Positions 4,292-29,410 of a stretch of DNA of 40,000 bases are shown here, piece after piece. A program made the translations under genes and the position numbers. The notes under the pieces were generated by a model, which ran no database searches, was not told where the DNA came from, and saw only the letters and a list, made by a program, of their open reading frames with translations. Source of the DNA: Bacillus sp. CGMCC 1.16541 (lineage in GTDB: Bacteria > Bacillota > Bacilli > Bacillales > Bacillaceae_H); NCBI RefSeq assembly GCF_003184905.1, contig NZ_QFRU01000009.1, positions 32,150 to 72,149 of the forward strand, read 5' to 3'. The first letter of the stretch is position 1. Every line of letters begins with the position of its first letter.

Positions 4292-4669
4292 ATGGGTGTT
4301 ACCAAAGCTCAACTAAAAAAAATATGGGCGACTGCAAAGGAGCTCGGATTGGATGAAGAAAGTCTTCGTGATGTGGTGGAGCAAGTATCGAAATCACGCT
4401 CCATCTCCTCTCTTTCCATCGACCAGGCTAACAAGGTAATAGACAGAATTGCTAATATGACGGTAGCTGGAATGGCAACAAAAAAGCAAATATGGCTGAT
4501 TGGAAAACTCGAAGAGGAACTCGGATGGGAGGATAATCCGAAGCGACTTCAAGCCTTTATGAAAAAATATGCTGGTGTCGATCGTATCGAGTGGCTTACC
4601 AGCGCAAAGGCTTGGCGAATCATTGAATCTTTGAAAAAGGTCAAAGAACGAAACCTCAAATCATCGTAA
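4292..4669 (+). CDS. GemA / Mu gp16-like regulatory protein
   Basis: The N-terminus KAQLKKIWATAKELGLDEESLRDVVEQVSKSRSISSLSIDQANKVIDRI matches the GemA (DUF1018) pattern. ATG lies 10 nt after aaaggag. Confidence 0.55.
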   Translation: MGVTKAQLKKIWATAKELGLDEESLRDVVEQVSKSRSISSLSIDQANKVIDRIANMTVAGMATKKQIWLIGKLEEELGWEDNPKRLQAFMKKYAGVDRIEWLTSAKAWRIIESLKKVKERNLKSS

Positions 4670-5139
4670 TGTTTGGATGTGATGGAAGTTTGAAAGTAAT
4701 ATCTATTATGCAGCCTTGGGCTAGTCTTATAGCCCTTGGTGAAAAGAAATTTGAAACGCGGTCCTGGAGAACGAATTATCGTGGGGAACTAGCAATTCAC
4801 GCAAGCAAGAAAATAGATCGCACTGCATGCAAAATGACTCCGATTGTTCAAACCTTAAATAAGCATAGCATCGTCCTTCTTAACGACCTACCAACTGGAA
4901 TGATAATCGCTACATGTAATCTGGAAGGATGCTACGAAGTGATGACAGAAGACGGTGAATCAGCGATACTGGAAGGTTGGAATAAATTCGTTTTCGATAA
5001 TGAATATAATTTCGGAGATTTCAGCGAAGGAAGATTCGCTTGGGAGCTATCGAATATAAGAACACTTAATAAACCAATCCAAGCTAAAGGTCAGCTTGGA
5101 TTGTGGAATTTTAAAGAGGGGTTGATTATGAATGAGTGA
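4669..5139 (+). CDS. ASCH (PUA-like) domain protein
   Basis: ISIMQPWASLIALGEKKFETRSWRTNYRGELAIHASKK is the typical ASCH N-terminal signature. TAATG overlap with the upstream gene. Confidence 0.6.
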   Translation: MFGCDGSLKVISIMQPWASLIALGEKKFETRSWRTNYRGELAIHASKKIDRTACKMTPIVQTLNKHSIVLLNDLPTGMIIATCNLEGCYEVMTEDGESAILEGWNKFVFDNEYNFGDFSEGRFAWELSNIRTLNKPIQAKGQLGLWNFKEGLIMNE

Positions 5140-5401
5140 AACTCCAATTACCATCTACTTCTCAAAAGAAACGGATGCTCATCGTAAGCCTCCATCTCCT
5201 TCTCCGTGGCGATTGCGTAAAACTCAATCAATCGTTGGTTGCGATCGCTGCCGTTGTAGAATCACTTTTGGTAAAGTGAACGGAGAGAAATTCGACCAAT
5301 ACTACCAGAAAGGAACTGGAAAGCGTTTGTGTCCAGATTGCTATACAGAGATAATCGGGGTGTTTGAAGATGGAGAAATGGATGGAACAACTAAAGATTG
5401 A
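5132..5401 (+). CDS. hypothetical protein with CxxC...CxxC zinc-ribbon pattern
   Basis: Contains CDRCRC ... CPDC; 89 aa. Confidence 0.5.
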   Translation: MSETPITIYFSKETDAHRKPPSPSPWRLRKTQSIVGCDRCRCRITFGKVNGEKFDQYYQKGTGKRLCPDCYTEIIGVFEDGEMDGTTKD

Positions 5402-5693
5402 AGACTTACCTGAAGTCTATCAATCTCTCGCTGAGAGTTTAGGAGTCGAGGGTGTCATCAAGCTTTCTGAAACGTTCGGCGGTGCGTATATGTATATCCC
5501 TAAACCTGACAAACTACTTCAAATCGCACGGAATGCCGCAATAATGGATCGTTACAGAAAAGGTAAATCTATACGCAGCATTGCCAGAGAGTTCAAATTA
5601 ACAGATGTTCGAATCCGAGCGATAATCGCTGAGGAAACAATGAATGAAAATCAAATCAGCATTTTTGATATTGAGGATGAGGACCAATCGTAA
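5382..5693 (+). CDS. mor: Mor-family transcriptional activator
   Basis: The sequence LAESLGVEGVIKLSETFGGAYMYIPK...IARNAAIMDRYRKGKSIRSIAREFKLTDVRIRAII matches the Mu Mor layout, including the C-terminal HTH. The start is ambiguous (5364, 5370 or 5382). Confidence 0.65.
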   Translation: MEQLKIEDLPEVYQSLAESLGVEGVIKLSETFGGAYMYIPKPDKLLQIARNAAIMDRYRKGKSIRSIAREFKLTDVRIRAIIAEETMNENQISIFDIEDEDQS

Positions 5694-6142: not shown

Positions 6143-6450
6143 GCGATGTATTACAGACCGTCAAAAACAAGAAAACAAGAGGATATATTCTTCGCATATT
6201 AAAGCTATCTTACCCGCAAGCTGTTGGAACAAATATTTTAGATGTATGCCTTATTGATGCAGGACTAGGAACGACAAGCGGAAAGCTAATCGGCCACCTT
6301 AAATACTTGGAGGATAAAGGATATGTCCGAGTAAAAGATGTGGAACTATCAAAAGTAGCGAAGTCCATGCATTTAGTCGAGCTGACGTCAGCAGGCATTG
6401 ACATTTTAGAAGGAACAGTTGTTGACCCAGGGGTGAATGTAGATGACTAA
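6139..6450 (+). CDS. putative winged-helix DNA-binding protein
   Basis: 103 aa. GYILRILKLSYPQ...LIGHLKYLEDKGYVRV resembles a wHTH. Start overlaps the upstream stop. Confidence 0.45.
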   Translation: MSDVLQTVKNKKTRGYILRILKLSYPQAVGTNILDVCLIDAGLGTTSGKLIGHLKYLEDKGYVRVKDVELSKVAKSMHLVELTSAGIDILEGTVVDPGVNVDD

Positions 6451-7006
6451 AGCTGGTCGCCCTCGCAAGCATCGGAAACACTTCAAAGTCGAACAATTGA
6501 AATGCAGGGCGATGGTCGATCGGATGTTATCAGACGGTTATACCTACGAGGATATCGTTGCAGCTGTGCAAGCGAAAGGCGAAAGCATCACGGCAGCATC
6601 TCTCTCTCGTTATCACGGTTCTTTTGAAAGAATAGCTGAACGGATTACAAAAACACGAGAGCAGATGAAAGTGCTTGTAGAAGCCGTGAGAGACAAGCCT
6701 AACACAGACCTTGCTCAAGTAGCTAACGAGCTCATGATGCAAAGTTTAATTGAGCGCATTTCTACTGCTCAAGATGAGTTCAGCGAAATCCCTCTGGATA
6801 AAGTCGGTAGGTTAGTCGCCAGCCTTGAAAGGTCGGCCACTGCTCGCGAAAAACTCAAGTATGAGTATGACAAAGGTATTACAGCTGCCAGTGAAGCGTT
6901 TAAGCAACGAATGCAGGAAGAATTGAAGAATCATCCTGACTTGTTGTTAAGAATGCTCGAAGTCGCTGAAGAGGTACAAACACAGCTATTAGAAGAGAAG
7001 AAGTAA
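6443..7006 (+). CDS. terminase small subunit, Mu gp27-like (DUF3486)
   Basis: N-terminus GRPRK..., then an HTH-like stretch (YEDIVAAVQAKGESITAASLSRYHGSF) and a long helical tail. Lies upstream of the large terminase. Confidence 0.6.
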   Translation: MTKAGRPRKHRKHFKVEQLKCRAMVDRMLSDGYTYEDIVAAVQAKGESITAASLSRYHGSFERIAERITKTREQMKVLVEAVRDKPNTDLAQVANELMMQSLIERISTAQDEFSEIPLDKVGRLVASLERSATAREKLKYEYDKGITAASEAFKQRMQEELKNHPDLLLRMLEVAEEVQTQLLEEKK

Positions 7007-7042
7007 ACTCCGTTTAAATGGCATTTGAAGGAGGTGAAAACC

Positions 7043-7138
7043 ATGAGTGAACAAACGAATACATGCGCTGTTATTGGATTGGCAGAAGTCGATATCGAGC
7101 AATTAGTAAATGAGTTCGGCTACGATGCTGATCGATAA
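7043..7138 (+). CDS. small hypothetical protein (31 aa, MSEQTNTCAVIGLAEVDIEQLVNEFGYDADR)
   Basis: Strong RBS gaaggaggtga 6 nt upstream. Translated by hand. Confidence 0.4.
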   Translation: MSEQTNTCAVIGLAEVDIEQLVNEFGYDADR

Positions 7139-7171
7139 TACGAAGCAGGAGTCGAATTCGATGGTGCTGTC

Positions 7172-7375
7172 ATGCTTGAACTATTCAAAGAGGGCGAAAT
7201 CGTCAAACGGAAATCCGAGGATCACGGCTATCGCTTAGATGTAATAGACGATTACGAAAACTCTATCCCTGCTGCCGCAATGATTGATTCCAATGGGAAC
7301 ACAATCGGGATGAGTGGCTTTACAGTGGAACAGTTGCTTGCTACTGATTGGCAGATTATGCGGATTGGGAATTAA
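7172..7375 (+). CDS. hypothetical phage protein
   Basis: 67-aa ORF with no strong RBS. Confidence 0.4.
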   Translation: MLELFKEGEIVKRKSEDHGYRLDVIDDYENSIPAAAMIDSNGNTIGMSGFTVEQLLATDWQIMRIGN

Positions 7376-7395
7376 CTGCTGCTTGTGCTTTTTGG

Positions 7396-7423
7396 TTGTT
7401 TAACATGTATTTCTCCCTAATAT
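7396..7423 (+). promoter_or_regulatory. candidate sigma-A-type promoter (TTGTTT - 16 nt - TAATAT)
   Basis: Hexamers read at 7396-7401 and 7418-7423. It would start transcription around 7430, at the first hairpin of the non-coding locus. Confidence 0.35.
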
Positions 7424-7427
7424 AGCT

Positions 7428-7450
7428 GGTCTCGTATGGTTGGCGAGACC
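7428..7450 (+). other. hairpin ggtctcg / cgagacc (9-nt loop) followed by gccttttat
   Basis: Read directly from the sequence. Could be the terminator of the upstream gene or the 5' element of module 1. Confidence 0.5.
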
Positions 7451-7459
7451 GCCTTTTAT

Positions 7460-7503
7460 GCGAGGAAGGTATTAGATCGGTTCGACTCCGATCCCTCGCT
7501 CCA
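7460..7503 (+). ncRNA. tRNA-like minihelix 1: acceptor stem + T arm + encoded CCA, no D or anticodon arm
   Basis: Layout: gcgagga | aggtattag | atcgg ttcgact ccgat | ccctcgc | t | cca. The acceptor stem has 6 Watson-Crick pairs plus an A:C mismatch. The T stem is 5 bp with a canonical T-loop. Confidence 0.6.
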
Positions 7504-7967
7504 AATTATCACAAAAGCCGACATCGACAGCAAACGGTGAACTTCACCAAAAATTTACAAGAAGTCGAACGGCAAAGATTCATTGTTCCTTGACAATGTT
7601 CGCACGTCGAATAAGGGCGTTTTATCTCGAACCGACCGAGAGCGACACGGATCGCGTGGCATGGCTGATGCTGCAAGATGCCGTCATATTGGGCCGAAAA
7701 ATGTAAGGACTACTCGCGGGAGCTCTACTTCCTTCTCCTTCTCGGTAAAATGGCTTTTTTCTACAGCTGAAACAAATGAAGTAGCTGCATTATTTGAGAT
7801 AAGGGAGTATCTATCGGATGCCACCGATGCGAGGCTTGCCACGATCCGCATATGCTATATGCGAGGAGCGAGTATGGGAGACGAACACCTGAAGTCCTGG
7901 GAGAACTTGTTTAAATAATGTTTTTAAATAGATGCCTCCTCCCTCTTTTTTTGGGAGGAGATTTTAC
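7504..7967 (+). ncRNA. candidate large structured non-coding RNA between the two minihelices
   Basis: No ORF with an RBS. The only tracked ORF (7583..7918) starts at TTG without an RBS and has an odd R/S/T-rich composition. G+C is locally elevated: hand counts give 57% for 7621-7680 and 50% for 7681-7740. Several hairpins are present, plus an 11-bp long-range complementarity. Confidence 0.35.
7936..7960 (+). other. hairpin ctcctccc / gggaggag (9-nt U-rich loop) followed by attttac
   Basis: Read directly from the sequence; 8 perfect base pairs. Could be a terminator-like element or the 5' element of module 2. Confidence 0.5.
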
Positions 7968-8011
7968 ACGGATTAAGGTTTATGGCGGTTCGATTCCGTC
8001 AATCTGTGCCA
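7968..8011 (+). ncRNA. tRNA-like minihelix 2: acceptor stem + T arm + encoded CCA, with G3:U70
   Basis: Layout: acggatt | aaggtttat | ggcgg ttcgatt ccgtc | aatctgt | g | cca. The acceptor stem is 7 bp, including a G:T wobble at the third pair. Confidence 0.6.
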
Positions 8012-8040
8012 AATACAATCATAAGGAGGTGGGTTGTGTT

Positions 8041-9690
8041 ATGAGAGAATCTTCTCTTCTATCCGAGCTGGTCGGCAGTAAGAATGAGCAAGTCGTAGAA
8101 GAATGGGAGTACGCTTTATGGGACAAATACGCAATTGATCATCCTGACTTAATCGAACTTAAAAGCAAACGCCCTTTTACTGGATCGACTGGATTAAGAA
8201 AACTTCTTGGCGAAAGAAGCATGGAATATTTTGCAAGAGCGTATTTCCCAGAGTACATCCCTACCGCCCCACCTTCCTTTCACCAGGAATGGTTTATTGA
8301 CCTGAAGAAAGTCGTCGAGAAAAATGGCGGTAGCTCAATGGTAAGAGCTGCTCCACGTGGACATGCAAAGACAACTATCTGGGACTTTGTATTTCCTCTC
8401 TGGGTGACGGTGTACAAGAAAAAGTTTTATATCCTCATTATTTCGGATGCTTATGACCAAGCCCAAGGCTTTATTAGTAACATAAAAGACGAGATTGAGG
8501 ACAACGAAAGAGTTGTTTCAGATTTCGGGAAATTAAAAGGAGACCGTTGGCAAGAGGGTAGTATTGTTTGCTCTAATGGTGTAAAAATCGAAGCCCTCGG
8601 TGCAGGAATGAAAGTCCGTGGCCGTAAAAATAAGAGCCGCCGACCTGACCTTATCATCCTCGATGACGTTGAGAATGATGAAAATGCAGCAACAACAGAA
8701 CAACGAAAAAAAATAAAAAACTGGTATAAAAAAGCCGTTAGGCACGCTGGTGCAAGATACACCGATTTCGTTTTCGTTGGAACGGTTATCCATGAAGACT
8801 CCCTTCTAGGCGAACTGCTAAAGAGTCCTGGTTACGATAGTAAAAGATATCAGGCTGTTGTTTCGTTTGCTGAAAGAGAGGACTTGTGGGCTGAATGGAA
8901 AGATATTTTCACCGATATGGACAACCAGAACAGAGAGACAGATGCCCGCGCTTTTTTTGAAAAGAATTCAAAAGAAATGCTTAAAGGAGCAAAGGTTCTG
9001 TGGGAAGAAAACAACCCTAAGTTTCCAGATGGATATTATAGCTTGATGGTAACTCGTGTAACAGATGGCGAATCGGCGTTTGCATCAGAGTTGCAAAATG
9101 ACCCAAGAAGCTCCGAAGAACAATTCTTTAAACCTAAGTATTATCAATACGGCGAACTACCTCCACTCTCTCAGTTAGAACTTGTAATGTCTGTCGATCC
9201 ATCGATGGGACAATCGGACAAATCCGACTTCTCGGCTATTATCGCCCTGGCTACTCATCGCAGGACGGGTCAAATGTATGTGCTTGAAGCAGACATTAAA
9301 CGCCGTAAACCTGACTTGATTATTGAGGCGATGTTCGACATTGCTATTAAATTTATGCGGCAAGGGCTAAAACCGAAAGTGATCGGAATAGAAGATGTTC
9401 AATTCCAAGCTTTCTTTAAACAAGAGGTTGAAAAACGAGCGAGAGCAAGAAGATTGCATTTGAATATCCGACCGATTCGCAACACTGTTTCGAAGGATAT
9501 GCGTATCGAATCGATGGAGCCTAGTGTAAACAACGGTTACATACTCCTCCACCCTTCTCAAACGCTGCTTATCGAGCAATTAGAAGGATATCCGAGAGCG
9601 AAGAAAGACGGACCAGATGCTTTGGAAATGACAACACGCCTAGCGACTGGTGCTGGCATGGGTGTTGGCTCTTTCGATAGAGTCTTTTAA
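8041..9690 (+). CDS. terL: terminase large subunit
   Basis: ATG after ataaggaggtg. Walker-A-like APRGHAKTT, Walker-B LIILDD, and a C-terminal nuclease-like region. Confidence 0.85.
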   Translation: MRESSLLSELVGSKNEQVVEEWEYALWDKYAIDHPDLIELKSKRPFTGSTGLRKLLGERSMEYFARAYFPEYIPTAPPSFHQEWFIDLKKVVEKNGGSSMVRAAPRGHAKTTIWDFVFPLWVTVYKKKFYILIISDAYDQAQGFISNIKDEIEDNERVVSDFGKLKGDRWQEGSIVCSNGVKIEALGAGMKVRGRKNKSRRPDLIILDDVENDENAATTEQRKKIKNWYKKAVRHAGARYTDFVFVGTVIHEDSLLGELLKSPGYDSKRYQAVVSFAEREDLWAEWKDIFTDMDNQNRETDARAFFEKNSKEMLKGAKVLWEENNPKFPDGYYSLMVTRVTDGESAFASELQNDPRSSEEQFFKPKYYQYGELPPLSQLELVMSVDPSMGQSDKSDFSAIIALATHRRTGQMYVLEADIKRRKPDLIIEAMFDIAIKFMRQGLKPKVIGIEDVQFQAFFKQEVEKRARARRLHLNIRPIRNTVSKDMRIESMEPSVNNGYILLHPSQTLLIEQLEGYPRAKKDGPDALEMTTRLATGAGMGVGSFDRVF

Positions 9691-27414: not shown

Positions 27415-27733
27415 CCCTACCATTTGGCGTGATAGAGTTAGTGATCCAGAGGGCGACATCACGCATCCAGGTACAAAATTCACAGCAAGACGAGGCAATA
27501 AACTTGAGGATGCATCTAAGTTAGCTCACGACCGATTGAATAATGTTGTCATTTTTATCGATGAGCTGACAAGGCAACAAAAGAATTTACGCCTGGAATT
27601 CCTATTGCTAAAAGCCTCTGTCACATCAGGGCTTACAAGTAATATTTTTGTTGAAAACTTTGAGACAACTGACGATATTGTCTTAATAAATGGATTCCAC
27701 GACCCAGCAGATCAAAAATTATACATCAGATAA
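27374..27733 (+). CDS. hypothetical tail-region protein
   Basis: TTG start 9 nt after gaggagg; overlaps the upstream gene end. Confidence 0.4.
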   Translation: MEIKELLDQIFNYDPTIWRDRVSDPEGDITHPGTKFTARRGNKLEDASKLAHDRLNNVVIFIDELTRQQKNLRLEFLLLKASVTSGLTSNIFVENFETTDDIVLINGFHDPADQKLYIR

Positions 27734-27746
27734 GAAGGGAAATGTT

Positions 27747-28088
27747 TTGAACAAAGCAACAGATTTAATTATTTACAAGAAGGCTGAAACGCTGCTTAAT
27801 GAGGTTTATCCAATTTTACGAGCCTTTCCTAAATCAGAGAAATTTGCGATATGCCAAGAAATCAAACAAGCTTTTTATGCCCTGCTGCGAAATATTATGC
27901 TAGCGAATAACATCAAAGCAAGAAAACGAATATATCAAGAAGAAGCTGATGCTTATATAAAGCTCCTTGTTGTCTTGTTTTCTGTGGCTAAAAAGCAACG
28001 ATACATCACTCAGAAAAGGCATACAATGATTCAATTGAAAATTGAAGAATTAGGAAAGATACTCGGCGGCTGGATGAAATCATCATAA
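27747..28088 (+). CDS. avd: DGR accessory variability determinant (Avd, four-helix-bundle protein)
   Basis: About 113 aa, basic and helical, ending ...IEELGKILGGWMKSS like known Avd proteins. Lies immediately upstream of TR. TTG start after gaaggga (an ATG at 27690 is also possible). Confidence 0.75.
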   Translation: MNKATDLIIYKKAETLLNEVYPILRAFPKSEKFAICQEIKQAFYALLRNIMLANNIKARKRIYQEEADAYIKLLVVLFSVAKKQRYITQKRHTMIQLKIEELGKILGGWMKSS

Positions 28089-28110
28089 CCTATTAGGGTT
28101 GCAGCTGTTT

Positions 28111-28206
28111 GGCGCTAACCGTGCTCTTCGCGGGAACAATTCGGCGCGGAACTGGAACAACGATGATGCTTCGAACCGCAACCCGAACTACGGCTGGCGT
28201 CCCGCC
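28111..28206 (+). repeat. DGR template repeat (TR)
   Basis: 96 nt aligned without gaps to 29961-30056. Contains 21 adenines, including 8 AAC and 1 AAT codons in the VR reading frame. Confidence 0.9.
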
Positions 28207-28342
28207 TTGTTAGTAATATTTAGATCGATGCGTTTACGGATTCATCGACACGGCCTCTAACTTCAAGGGAGCTGCAATCCTTCGTTCGTAGAACGTAAAC
28301 ACATGAATAGTCATTCTCGCCCAGCTGAAAGGAGCGGCCGAA
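28207..28342 (+). other. DGR spacer (Sp-like) RNA region between TR and RT
   Basis: Non-coding with local hairpins (tcgatg/catcga at 28225-28248; cgttc gta gaacg at ~28283-28295). Also contains agctgcaatcc (28270-28280), which is complementary to gggttgcagct (28096-28106) upstream of TR. Confidence 0.55.
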
Positions 28343-29410
28343 ATGGCGAAAAAATATGATCATTTATACGAGAAGATTGTCGATTTTGACAATCTTCTTT
28401 TTGCATATAAACAAACACTAAAAGGAGATAGGAAATTCCGTAAGGATGCTATTCTATTTTCTATGCTGGAAGATGCTAACCTAGTAAGACTTTGGAAAGA
28501 ATTAAAAACTGGTAATTATAGAGTTGGTGAGTATATCAGATTCAAAGTTTACGAGCCGAAAGAACGCATGGTCAGCGCACCTAGGATCAAGGACAAGATT
28601 GTCCAATTCGCAACGCATACAGTCATAAAAGATGTTTACTCTAATGTGTTCGTATCTGACAGTTACGCTTGTCTTGAGGAAAGAGGAACTCATAAAGCGG
28701 TTGATAAAGTTCAGAAATATTTAAGAGATTGCGAGAGACTTTATGGTTACGGTTGGATTGTAAAAGTCGATGTGTCAAAGTTCTTTTATTCTATCGACCG
28801 AACGATTCTAAAAAGAATTCTTAGAAAAAAGATTGCGTGCCGTAAAACAATTTGGCTTCTTGATCAAATTATTGATAGCTCTCCAGAAGGAGAACGCGGA
28901 ATCCCTCTTGGGAACGTCACTAGCCAAGATTTTGCCAATATCTATTTAAATGAGTTGGATCAATATGTAAAACGTCATCTTGGCATCAAGTGGTATGTGC
29001 GATATATGGACGATTGCGTAGCTATCGTGCAGACAAAAGAAGAAGCGCAGAGATTAAAGAAGCAAATGTGTCGATTCCTTCGTGTTCATTTGAATCTGAT
29101 GGAAAATCCAAAGAAATCGCAAATATTCCCTCTTACTCAAGGGGTTAATGCTTATGGCTTTAAAATATGGACGACTCATAAGAAAGTCCGTGATCAGTCA
29201 AAAAGAGCGATGAAACGCCGCATCAAGGCGATGGATAGAAAGGTGAAAGGAGGCTCTTTAACCGTGAGTGAGGTCAAACAAGCTGTTGATAGCTGGATGG
29301 GCCACGCTCGACATAGCAACTCATATAATTTAGCTAAAAAAATCTTTGCTCCGTATCCATACATTAAAGTTGAAGGAGATGAGTATTTTGGCAAACGGAG
29401 ATTTAATTAA
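28343..29410 (+). CDS. DGR reverse transcriptase
   Basis: RBS gaaaggag. Contains IPLGNVTSQDFANIYLNELD (the SQ...N signature typical of DGR RTs) and the catalytic YVRYMDDCV. Confidence 0.9.
   Translation: MAKKYDHLYEKIVDFDNLLFAYKQTLKGDRKFRKDAILFSMLEDANLVRLWKELKTGNYRVGEYIRFKVYEPKERMVSAPRIKDKIVQFATHTVIKDVYSNVFVSDSYACLEERGTHKAVDKVQKYLRDCERLYGYGWIVKVDVSKFFYSIDRTILKRILRKKIACRKTIWLLDQIIDSSPEGERGIPLGNVTSQDFANIYLNELDQYVKRHLGIKWYVRYMDDCVAIVQTKEEAQRLKKQMCRFLRVHLNLMENPKKSQIFPLTQGVNAYGFKIWTTHKKVRDQSKRAMKRRIKAMDRKVKGGSLTVSEVKQAVDSWMGHARHSNSYNLAKKIFAPYPYIKVEGDEYFGKRRFN

Follow-up and report, generated by a model that had tools for sequence, protein, structure and literature searches.

Here, we analysed positions 7504-7967 of a 40-kb window of DNA (the whole stretch is referred to as the window; coordinates are positions within it unless a homologous locus is named; the genes for Mor, gp27 and terL and those following terL are encoded on the + strand). 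The window holds a Mu-like prophage of a Firmicute, and the stretch is located between the gene for a Mu gp27-like protein and the terminase gene terL. We are highly confident that this gap harbors a conserved structured RNA of Mu-like prophages, which has not been described previously. The RNA module spans about 7427-8011 on the + strand and comprises a folded core and two flanking tRNA-like elements, in the following referred to as minihelices. A preliminary description based on the DNA sequence alone had proposed a large non-coding structured phage RNA flanked by tRNA-like minihelices at this position. This proposal is borne out, as no reading frame is conserved and eight phages share the fold. 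No earlier description of the RNA was found in Rfam 15 and the searchable literature, and a catalogue that lists 10,006 candidate RNAs of viruses is restricted to motifs of 29-151 nt.

Conservation and architecture of the RNA

The eight distinct homologues occupy the same gp27-terL gap in Mu-like prophages of Bacillales and were reached via relatives of terL and their contigs. A long form with a core of about 330 nt is present in the window, in the JGI metagenome contig L161, in L001 (Bacillus phage BalMu-1 of Alkalihalobacillus alcalophilus) and in L163 (Brevibacillus borstelensis). A short form A of about 200 nt occurs in L164 (Paenibacillus naphthalenovorans) and L291, and a short form B in L165 and L309, the overall range of core sizes being about 200-340 nt. 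The long forms possess both minihelices, except for L163, which, like the short B forms, has the 5' one only, and the short A forms have none.

The consensus architecture was obtained by RNAalifold on the four long forms and by inspection of all eight members. The core (7583-7871) is a multi-branch domain which is closed by the long-range helix P1 and whose joiners are near-invariant in most members (Table 1). No non-canonical pair occurs among the 59 curated ones in the window. Among the four long forms, 95.7% of 346 alignment cells are paired, compared to 40-47% with slid partners, and 43 of 90 pairs have changed on both sides (3-12 with slid partners); none of 500 shuffles reached the observed values of pairing and compensation. 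When the curated helices are followed through all eight sequences, 303 of 311 cells are paired. The short forms, which had not been used to derive the fold, keep P1, P3, P4, P6 and P7 with different sequences. Changes on both sides affect 11 of 14 pairs in the helices of the P2 domain (long forms) and three of four in P3; P6 and P7 are 89.9% paired on a model-guided alignment, with compensatory changes in eight of nine pairs. All four modelled pairs of P7 have changed on both sides, its first pair being C-G in five rows and U-A in three. The eight phages thus maintain a common fold with many compensatory changes.

Conservation at the level of sequence is concentrated in single-stranded segments and in one strand of P1. 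The box GCCACGAUC is near-invariant in six members and recognizable in the two divergent ones, and the CAUA junction is kept in most members, including both short A forms. The 3' strand of P1 reads RGGAGCGA in six members, only the first base varying between A and G, and GGGAGUA in the other two. While GGAGCGA is almost invariant, the 5' strand of P1 toggles between U and C opposite G. As these positions would be A-C mismatches on the opposite strand, the RNA is that of the + (gene) strand. Accordingly, a role at the DNA level, such as a pac site, a gyrase site or an enhancer, was set aside because covariation that includes G-U pairs is strand-specific.

The pattern of change also bears on the question of whether the module might merely be a decaying remnant of a tRNA cluster or the scar of a mobile element, without a function of its own. 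Such an origin would agree with the patchy distribution of the RNA, which sister phages lack, with the accessory open reading frames (ORFs) also collected at the junction, and with the broken Tad2-like gene next to it in the window. However, more than 40 base pairs with compensatory change and the invariant joiners have been maintained although the flanking gp27 protein has diverged to as little as 55% identity. The persistence of these features across diverged phages indicates purifying selection on the fold, and we give the remnant explanation a marginal chance at best.

Several of the features noted in the preliminary description can be placed within this architecture. All of the strings it quoted are present in the window at the sites given, as determined by a string check. 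Its hairpin atcgg-atgcca-ccgat (7813-7828) corresponds to P6, which is conserved and covaries, as do the two flanking minihelices, and the hairpin at 7936-7960 is present as well. The ggtga/tcacc hairpin does occur at 7537-7549 but lies within an insert restricted to the window and L161. The cattgt/acaatg hairpin at 7581-7598, also present, lacks conservation and overlaps the 5' strand of P1. A proposed 11-bp long-range pairing of cggatcgcgtggc (7648-7660) with gccacgatccg (7838-7848) is strong in the window (-19.5 kcal/mol, reached by 1.8% of shuffles) but is not conserved: it fades in L161 (9% of shuffles) and is absent in L001 (72%) and L163 (32%). This helix is therefore considered to be specific to the window, where it is in competition with P3/P3a, helices that covary. 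The P6 stem AUCGG/CCGAU (7813-7828) is identical to the T-stem of minihelix 1 (7476-7492) in the window and L161, but in no other member, which is either a lineage-specific coincidence or a small duplication.

The G+C counts given by hand in that description (34/60, 30/60 and 26/60) are exact. With 45.5%, the region does exceed the window mean of 40.3% (standard deviation 3.6; 91.5th percentile), but the enrichment is modest and does not distinguish the region, as it equals that of the adjacent gp27-like gene (45.2%). Similarly, the z-scores of single-sequence folding are unremarkable (-2.2 for the + strand and -2.6 for the - strand).

Coding potential

Two ORFs might argue for a small protein encoded in the region, a 111-aa ORF with a TTG start (7583-7918) and a 14-codon mini-ORF (7874-7918) whose ATG is preceded by GAGGAG. 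The mismatches between the window and L161 are, however, evenly spread over the codon positions in the frame of the 111-aa ORF (25/25/21), whereas the gp27 gene, which served as a control of similar nucleotide identity, yielded 21/11/106. Insertions and deletions of 25, 1, 2, 4, 1, 7 and 1 nt between the same two sequences break the frame, and every forward frame of the region contains stops in L161, L001, L165 and L309. The mini-ORF has another frame and length in L161, and no ATG is present in L001 or L163; the only shared peptide, CxHIGP, derives from a single conserved nucleotide island. Substitution pattern, indels and stops rule out coding potential of the region, and we attach virtually no credence to a small protein. 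The preliminary description was thus right in rejecting the 111-aa ORF, and the conserved reading frame it had named as a possible refutation is not found among the homologues. Its mini-ORF with a gaggag ribosome binding site, by contrast, is not conserved, the supposed binding site being the 3' strand of P1. The further statement that no protein is encoded between the two terminase genes applies to 7504-7967, but not to 7025-7375, which is occupied by a Tad2-like ORF with an in-frame TAA.

Relation to known RNA families

A search of the window with all 4227 models of Rfam 15 at gathering thresholds returned nothing in the gap. The same database gave no family match for the 1.3 kb at 7000-8300 at E<=10, and nothing for six homologous loci at E<=1. 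The sole Rfam hit at minihelix 2 was a 10.3-bit partial match to the T-arm of beta_tmRNA, the gathering score of which is 84, and ARAGORN predicted no tRNA or tmRNA genes. An identity as ROOL or GOLLD, which the preliminary description had raised as a possibility only, is not borne out: the covariance models of ROOL (RF03087) and GOLLD (RF01998, including its conserved 3' half) remained without a match in the window, in 7000-8300 and in the six homologous loci. Likewise, the models of group I and II introns, RNase P RNA, 6S RNA, T-box, OLE, raiA and pRNA were unmatched in the gap or the homologues. A tmRNA is contradicted by the ARAGORN result, by the lack of conservation of the mini-ORF and by a T-arm fragment scoring far below the gathering score. 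A canonical tRNA can be dismissed since there is no cloverleaf and only 9-11 nt separate the 5' acceptor strand from the T-arm. Based on the negative outcome of both Rfam and ARAGORN, we exclude ROOL, GOLLD, tmRNA, introns, T-box, RNase P RNA and pRNA.

Distribution

The RNA family is real but small. In the close Mu-like relatives L081, L162, L310, L312, L314, L315 and L301-L308 the RNA is absent and gp27 abuts terL. A covariance model of the 3' module, built from six members and anchored by the box at 7838-7846, recovered both short B members at the expected place (18.4 and 14.5 bits); across about 190 related loci, it gave no other convincing match. With the gap sequences of the window and two homologues as queries, blastn gave no nucleotide match among 50,697 phage records; BalMu-1 was found through its terL protein only. 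A loose conserved-sequence pattern yielded only noise in public collections; a stricter one returned three true and three chance matches in IMG/VR, a scan of JGI metagenomes six chance matches only, and a minihelix-specific pattern no match in public collections, so that the scans of IMG/VR and JGI metagenomes added no members beyond the eight. Using a single terL protein as query retrieved nothing. Alignment-based terL retrieval provided 160 loci, with the RNA in L001 only, and gp27-based retrieval together with six further contigs added one new member, L309. A search for further loci with the Tad2-like ORF returned only the ORF itself.

tRNA-like minihelices

The T-loop motif GGTTCRANTCC occurs twice in the 40 kb (at 7479 and 7987; expected 0.11), and the two copies bracket the studied stretch. 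Each is part of a minihelix with a canonical acceptor/T-arm arrangement, that is, a 7+5-bp stack and a T-loop UUCRANN closed by G53-C61. The alignment of nine copies, which stem from six phages, comprises a 6-bp acceptor stem and a 6-bp T-stem, and ten of the 12 pairs exhibit compensatory changes, while the T-loop and the G53-C61 pair are invariant. GGUUCRAnUCC is kept in all copies but one, which has GGUUCGACCCC. Instead of D and anticodon arms, there is a linker of 9-11 nt that always contains GG. Eight of the nine copies have the 3' tail N-CC-N, the third base being A, A, U, G, A, C, C and C, and a U is present at position -1 in six. The minihelices are, hence, anticodon-less tRNA mimics consisting of an acceptor stem, a T-arm, a GG linker resembling a D-loop and a 3' NCC tail.

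With a coaxial acceptor/T-arm helix, a T-loop and a 3' N-C-C, the minihelices have the structural features of an RNase P minihelix substrate. As the CC is conserved and the third base is free, recognition by RNase P fits better than aminoacylation; the pairing of RNase P RNA with the tail spares A76. It is established that minihelices of acceptor and T-arm serve as substrates of RNase P, whose RNA pairs with C74/C75, as McClain et al. in 1987 and Kirsebom and Svard in 1994 reportedly found. The acceptor stem of minihelix 2 contains a G3:U70 wobble. G3:U70 is the identity determinant of alanine; since it occurs in minihelix 2 of the window only and is not conserved in the other minihelices, it is probably incidental here. 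In the homologues, a GC-rich hairpin is located 4-10 nt upstream of every minihelix, and hairpins analogous to that at 7936-7960 precede minihelix 2 in L001 and L161. The Shine-Dalgarno (SD) sequence of terL follows the CCA of minihelix 2 at a distance of just 12 nt.

Genetic context

The loci of the relatives contain Gam, GemA, Mor, gp27, the Mu portal and MuF. In the window, terL is followed by a Mu-type portal gene and later genes, all on the + strand, and more than 20 kb of structural genes lie downstream of the RNA in the operon. Homologues of terL align from about residue 2 of a 549-aa product, which places the true start at ATG 8041. The non-coding gap therefore extends from 7376 to 8040, the studied stretch being its middle. 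As the terL frame is open for another 41 codons upstream (7918-8040), across minihelix 2, mechanical and public gene calls over-extend terL, in the window to 590/591 aa; a corresponding upstream open frame is present in L161 (3501-3596).

Table 1. Features of the RNA module and its surroundings (positions within the window).
Feature	Position	Strand	Remarks
Mor activator	5364-5693	+	
Mu gp27/DUF3486 protein	6443-7006	+	'small terminase' of the preliminary description
Tad2-like (DUF2829) ORF	7025-7375	+	upstream of the RNA; split by in-frame TAA at 7136-7138
GC-rich hairpin and U-rich tract CCUUUUAU	7427-7451	+	terminator-like match; precedes minihelix 1
Minihelix 1	7460-7503	+	acceptor 7460-7466/7493-7499; T-stem 7476-7480/7488-7492; GG-containing linker; T-loop UUCGACU; discriminator U7500; CCA 7501-7503
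Variable insert	7504-7582	+	local hairpins including 7537-7549; window and L161 only, gap in other aligned members
P1, 5' strand UUGUUCCU	7583-7590	+	closing helix; pairs with 7864-7871 in 8/8 members
J1/2	7591-7597	+	joiner after P1 5' strand; conserved UGACAAU
P2 domain	7598-7646	+	P2 7598-7603/7642-7646
P2a hairpin	7604-7608/7616-7620	+	within P2
P2b hairpin	7625-7629/7637-7641	+	within P2
P3 with hairpin P3a	7647-7650/7681-7684; 7656-7661/7669-7674	+	domain 7647-7690 including J3/4
J3/4	7685-7690	+	joiner; conserved CAUAUU
P4	7691-7695/7833-7837	+	encloses linker, P5 and P6 (7691-7837)
P5 domain	7726-7734/7801-7809	+	long forms only
P6 hairpin	7813-7817/7824-7828	+	covaries on model-guided alignment
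Box (UU)GCCACGAUC	7838-7846	+	most conserved single-stranded stretch
P7 hairpin	7847-7853/7857-7863	+	CGCAUAU-GCU-AUAUGCG; followed by P1 3' strand
P1, 3' strand AGGAGCGA	7864-7871	+	'gaggag RBS' of the preliminary description
3' extension	7872-7935	+	conserved AAC..YUG..UCC patch; contains the non-conserved mini-ORF 7874-7918
8-bp hairpin CUCCUCCC/GGGAGGAG	7936-7960	+	U-rich loop, followed by AUUUUAC; from sequence
Minihelix 2	7968-8011	+	acceptor 7968-7974/8001-8007; T-stem 7984-7988/7996-8000; T-loop UUCGAUU; G8008; CCA 8009-8011
SD sequence AAGGAGG and true terL start ATG 8041	8024-8043	+	from sequence and homologue alignment

In the long forms, the RNA is preceded by an ORF with similarity to DUF2829, which we take to be the Thoeris anti-defence 2-like (Tad2) family; the orthologues in L001 and L163 score 21.9 and 23.8 bits against PF11195 and, thus, just miss the cut-off of 25. 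The stop codon in the window is located where L161, the closest relative, has Gln-Leu. Judged from its sequence, the ORF of the window may either be a pseudogene or provide only the C-terminal 67 aa from ATG 7172. A small ORF (MIRKLWYRF...) was observed in the Paenibacillus member between the RNA and terL (L164, 3233-3340), indicating that the junction accumulates accessory insertions. The gp27-terL junction hence behaves as an accessory or anti-defence islet, which motivates, but does not establish, a role of the RNA in counter-defence. In the record of BalMu-1, the sole annotation covering the RNA is gp24, a 42-aa reverse-strand hypothetical protein (L313 = NC_030945, 13294-13422, corresponding to L001 3493-3621), which is probably a spurious gene call. 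Two annotations are thereby corrected, the over-extension of terL by 41 codons across minihelix 2 and the probably spurious gene of BalMu-1.

Elsewhere in the window, a diversity-generating retroelement cassette (27690-29410) adjoins the tail genes for Mu gp48 and baseplate J. It consists of a bAvd-like accessory protein (27690-28088), an Rfam RT-9 RNA motif (28223-28312; 76.9 bits) and a reverse transcriptase (28343-29410). Among the early genes of the prophage are those for a protein with an N6-adenine DNA methylase domain and for an ASCH-domain protein (2251-2949; 4669-5139).

Possible function of the RNA

No sigma-70-type promoter was identified on the + strand of the gap in the window, L001, L163 and L164, so that co-transcription with the neighboring genes is likely. 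In L161, two weak matches to the consensus occur on the + strand, which are at the level of background, and the conserved TTGACA in J1/2 was rejected as a -35 element as no -10 element follows. The module would thus be transcribed as part of the late message from gp27 to terL. In the long forms, the upstream mRNA, the core and terL are delimited from one another precisely by the two minihelices, which led us to propose that the latter act as tRNA-like punctuation. Host RNase P may recognize each minihelix as the 'top half' of a tRNA and cut on its 5' side, at about 7459/7460 and 7967/7968. Predicted products would be an upstream mRNA ending in the hairpin at 7427-7451, an RNA of about 510 nt composed of minihelix 1, the core and the hairpin at 7936-7960, and the terL message. 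The latter hairpin could serve as a 3'-terminal stabilizer of the excised RNA, which, with its tRNA-like 5' end, may persist as a stable, trans-acting molecule during the lytic cycle, as is thought for ROOL and GOLLD. We tentatively favor this combination of tRNA-like processing and a stable RNA acting in trans, giving it slightly less than an even chance. As the Tad2-like gene is adjacent, our leading guess for the role of the RNA is host takeover or counter-defence.

A number of observations weigh against this model or the fold on which it is built. The counts for the full-length structure were made on the very four sequences from which RNAalifold had derived it, and the family is tiny, comprising eight sequences. 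A suspected pseudoknot of the P4 linker with the 3' extension, its sequence differing in each long form, had seemed attractive on visual inspection but was rejected, being not significant compared to shuffles. L164 and L291 are devoid of minihelices and three members have the 5' one only; with minihelices missing or incomplete in five members, tRNA-like processing cannot be essential to the function of the core. In addition, the SD sequence of terL is buried in a hairpin in L163 (3470-3501), L165 (3465-3501) and L309 (1295-1330). The upstream arm of these hairpins is ACUCC(CC), and the 3' strand of P1 (GGGAG) is complementary to this anti-SD arm. Together, an SD-sequestering hairpin and a complementary P1 strand would look like a translational riboswitch; possibly, the hairpins provide translational control of terL, either independent of the RNA or coupled to it.

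The main rival to a trans-acting RNA is accordingly a cis-regulatory leader, riboswitch-like or protein-binding, which would set the expression of terL or of downstream late genes. P1 would hide the invariant GGAGCGA, and the freed strand would pair with the pyrimidine anti-SD element and thereby release the terL ribosome binding site. The RNA is always located upstream of terL on the same strand, and the invariance of its junction nucleotides is reminiscent of a pocket for a ligand or protein. The SD-sequestering hairpins in three of the eight members likewise fit such a leader, as does the complementarity of the GAGGAG of P1 in the window to the CUCCUC of the hairpin at 7936-7960. However, any GGAG is trivially complementary to any CUCC, and neither an expression platform nor a canonical terminator is conserved. 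Depending on the member, P1 and the terL start are 72 to 349 nt apart, and a minihelix (window, L161, L001) or a small ORF (L164) intervenes between the core and the terL ribosome binding site. We therefore regard a leader as unlikely, albeit worth serious consideration.

The RNA lies inside an operon with more than 20 kb of structural genes behind it and terminator-like hairpins nearby. This position would also suit processive antitermination of the type known from HK022 put or Bacillus EAR, allowing the polymerase to read through the hairpins and the long late operon. Opposed to this, no Rfam match was obtained in the region, the hairpins of the relatives are not canonical terminators, and one hairpin is located upstream of the RNA, out of reach for an RNA of this kind. 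As sister phages with the same operon manage without the RNA, antitermination appears quite improbable. At the most speculative end, the module may be an RNA weapon of the phage, in which a ligand- or protein-binding core is combined with decoys of the tRNA acceptor end, placed in an anti-defence islet beside a Tad2-like sponge gene. It might neutralize host immunity, e.g. by soaking up an abortive-infection toxin that targets tRNA acceptors or an immune signalling nucleotide, or might form an RNA-only particle like ROOL and GOLLD. We consider this distinctly unlikely, if less so than antitermination.

Comparison with known systems

Like the pRNA of phi29, the RNA described here is a structured RNA of a Bacillus phage with a possible link to packaging, located directly before the gene of the packaging ATPase. 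In contrast to phi29, however, the phage is Mu-like with headful packaging, and there is no Rfam match to pRNA. An obligatory role in the motor is excluded, as the RNA is missing from sister phages that have the same terminase. With riboswitch leaders it shares a multi-way junction closed by P1, invariant joiners, a position upstream of a gene and an SD-like 3' strand of P1; it differs from them by its variable spacing, the interposed elements and the lack of a conserved platform, and no known class is matched.

The minihelices resemble tmRNA, YrlA and the tRNA-like structures of plant viruses in the coaxial stack of acceptor and T-arm, the canonical T-loop, the GG that substitutes for the D-loop and the NCC(A) tail. 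In tmRNA the acceptor strands originate from the distant 5' and 3' ends, whereas here they are local; further, neither a conserved tag frame, as in tmRNA, nor a Ro-binding stem, as in YrlA, is present. In the MALAT1/mascRNA system, a tRNA-like element is located just 3' of a long non-coding RNA, and cleavage by RNase P creates the 3' end of the latter behind a protective structure. Similarly, a tRNA-like element directly follows the RNA of the window, and RNase P cleavage is predicted to create its 3' end. Unlike MALAT1, this RNA is bacterial and phage-borne, its 3' structure is a plain hairpin instead of a triple helix, and the mimics have no D and anticodon arms. In the tRNA punctuation of mitochondria, tRNA-like elements part the functional units of a polycistronic transcript. 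If the processing model is true, the module would be a natural example of anticodon-less tRNA 'top halves' acting as punctuation in a bacterial virus.

The RNA constitutes a new family of a known general kind, the large phage-encoded structured RNAs associated with tRNA-like elements. RNAs of bacteria and phages that are large, intricately folded and without known function are seldom encountered, and every discovery of one has led to new biology; ROOL and GOLLD proved to form nanocages. Like these two, which are encoded by phages and prophages mostly of Firmicutes, the RNA is phage-encoded and has a large multi-helix fold with no associated ORF. Its core of about 200-340 nt is, however, considerably shorter than ROOL (roughly 580 nt) and GOLLD (>800 nt), and its location between gp27 and terL is constant within a single small clade of Mu-like prophages. 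ROOL and GOLLD typically adjoin tRNAs, and the linker of GOLLD sometimes contains tRNAs (PMC12286853). The minihelices echo this unexplained association (PMC12286853), although the neighbors of the RNA here are anticodon-less minihelices instead of full tRNAs. The core is small enough for structural work, natural long and short variants define its minimal form, and the RNA is present in a cultivable, inducible phage, BalMu-1 of A. alcalophilus. The link between large phage RNAs and tRNA-like elements, which has been noted repeatedly without explanation, is built into this module and thereby becomes directly testable.

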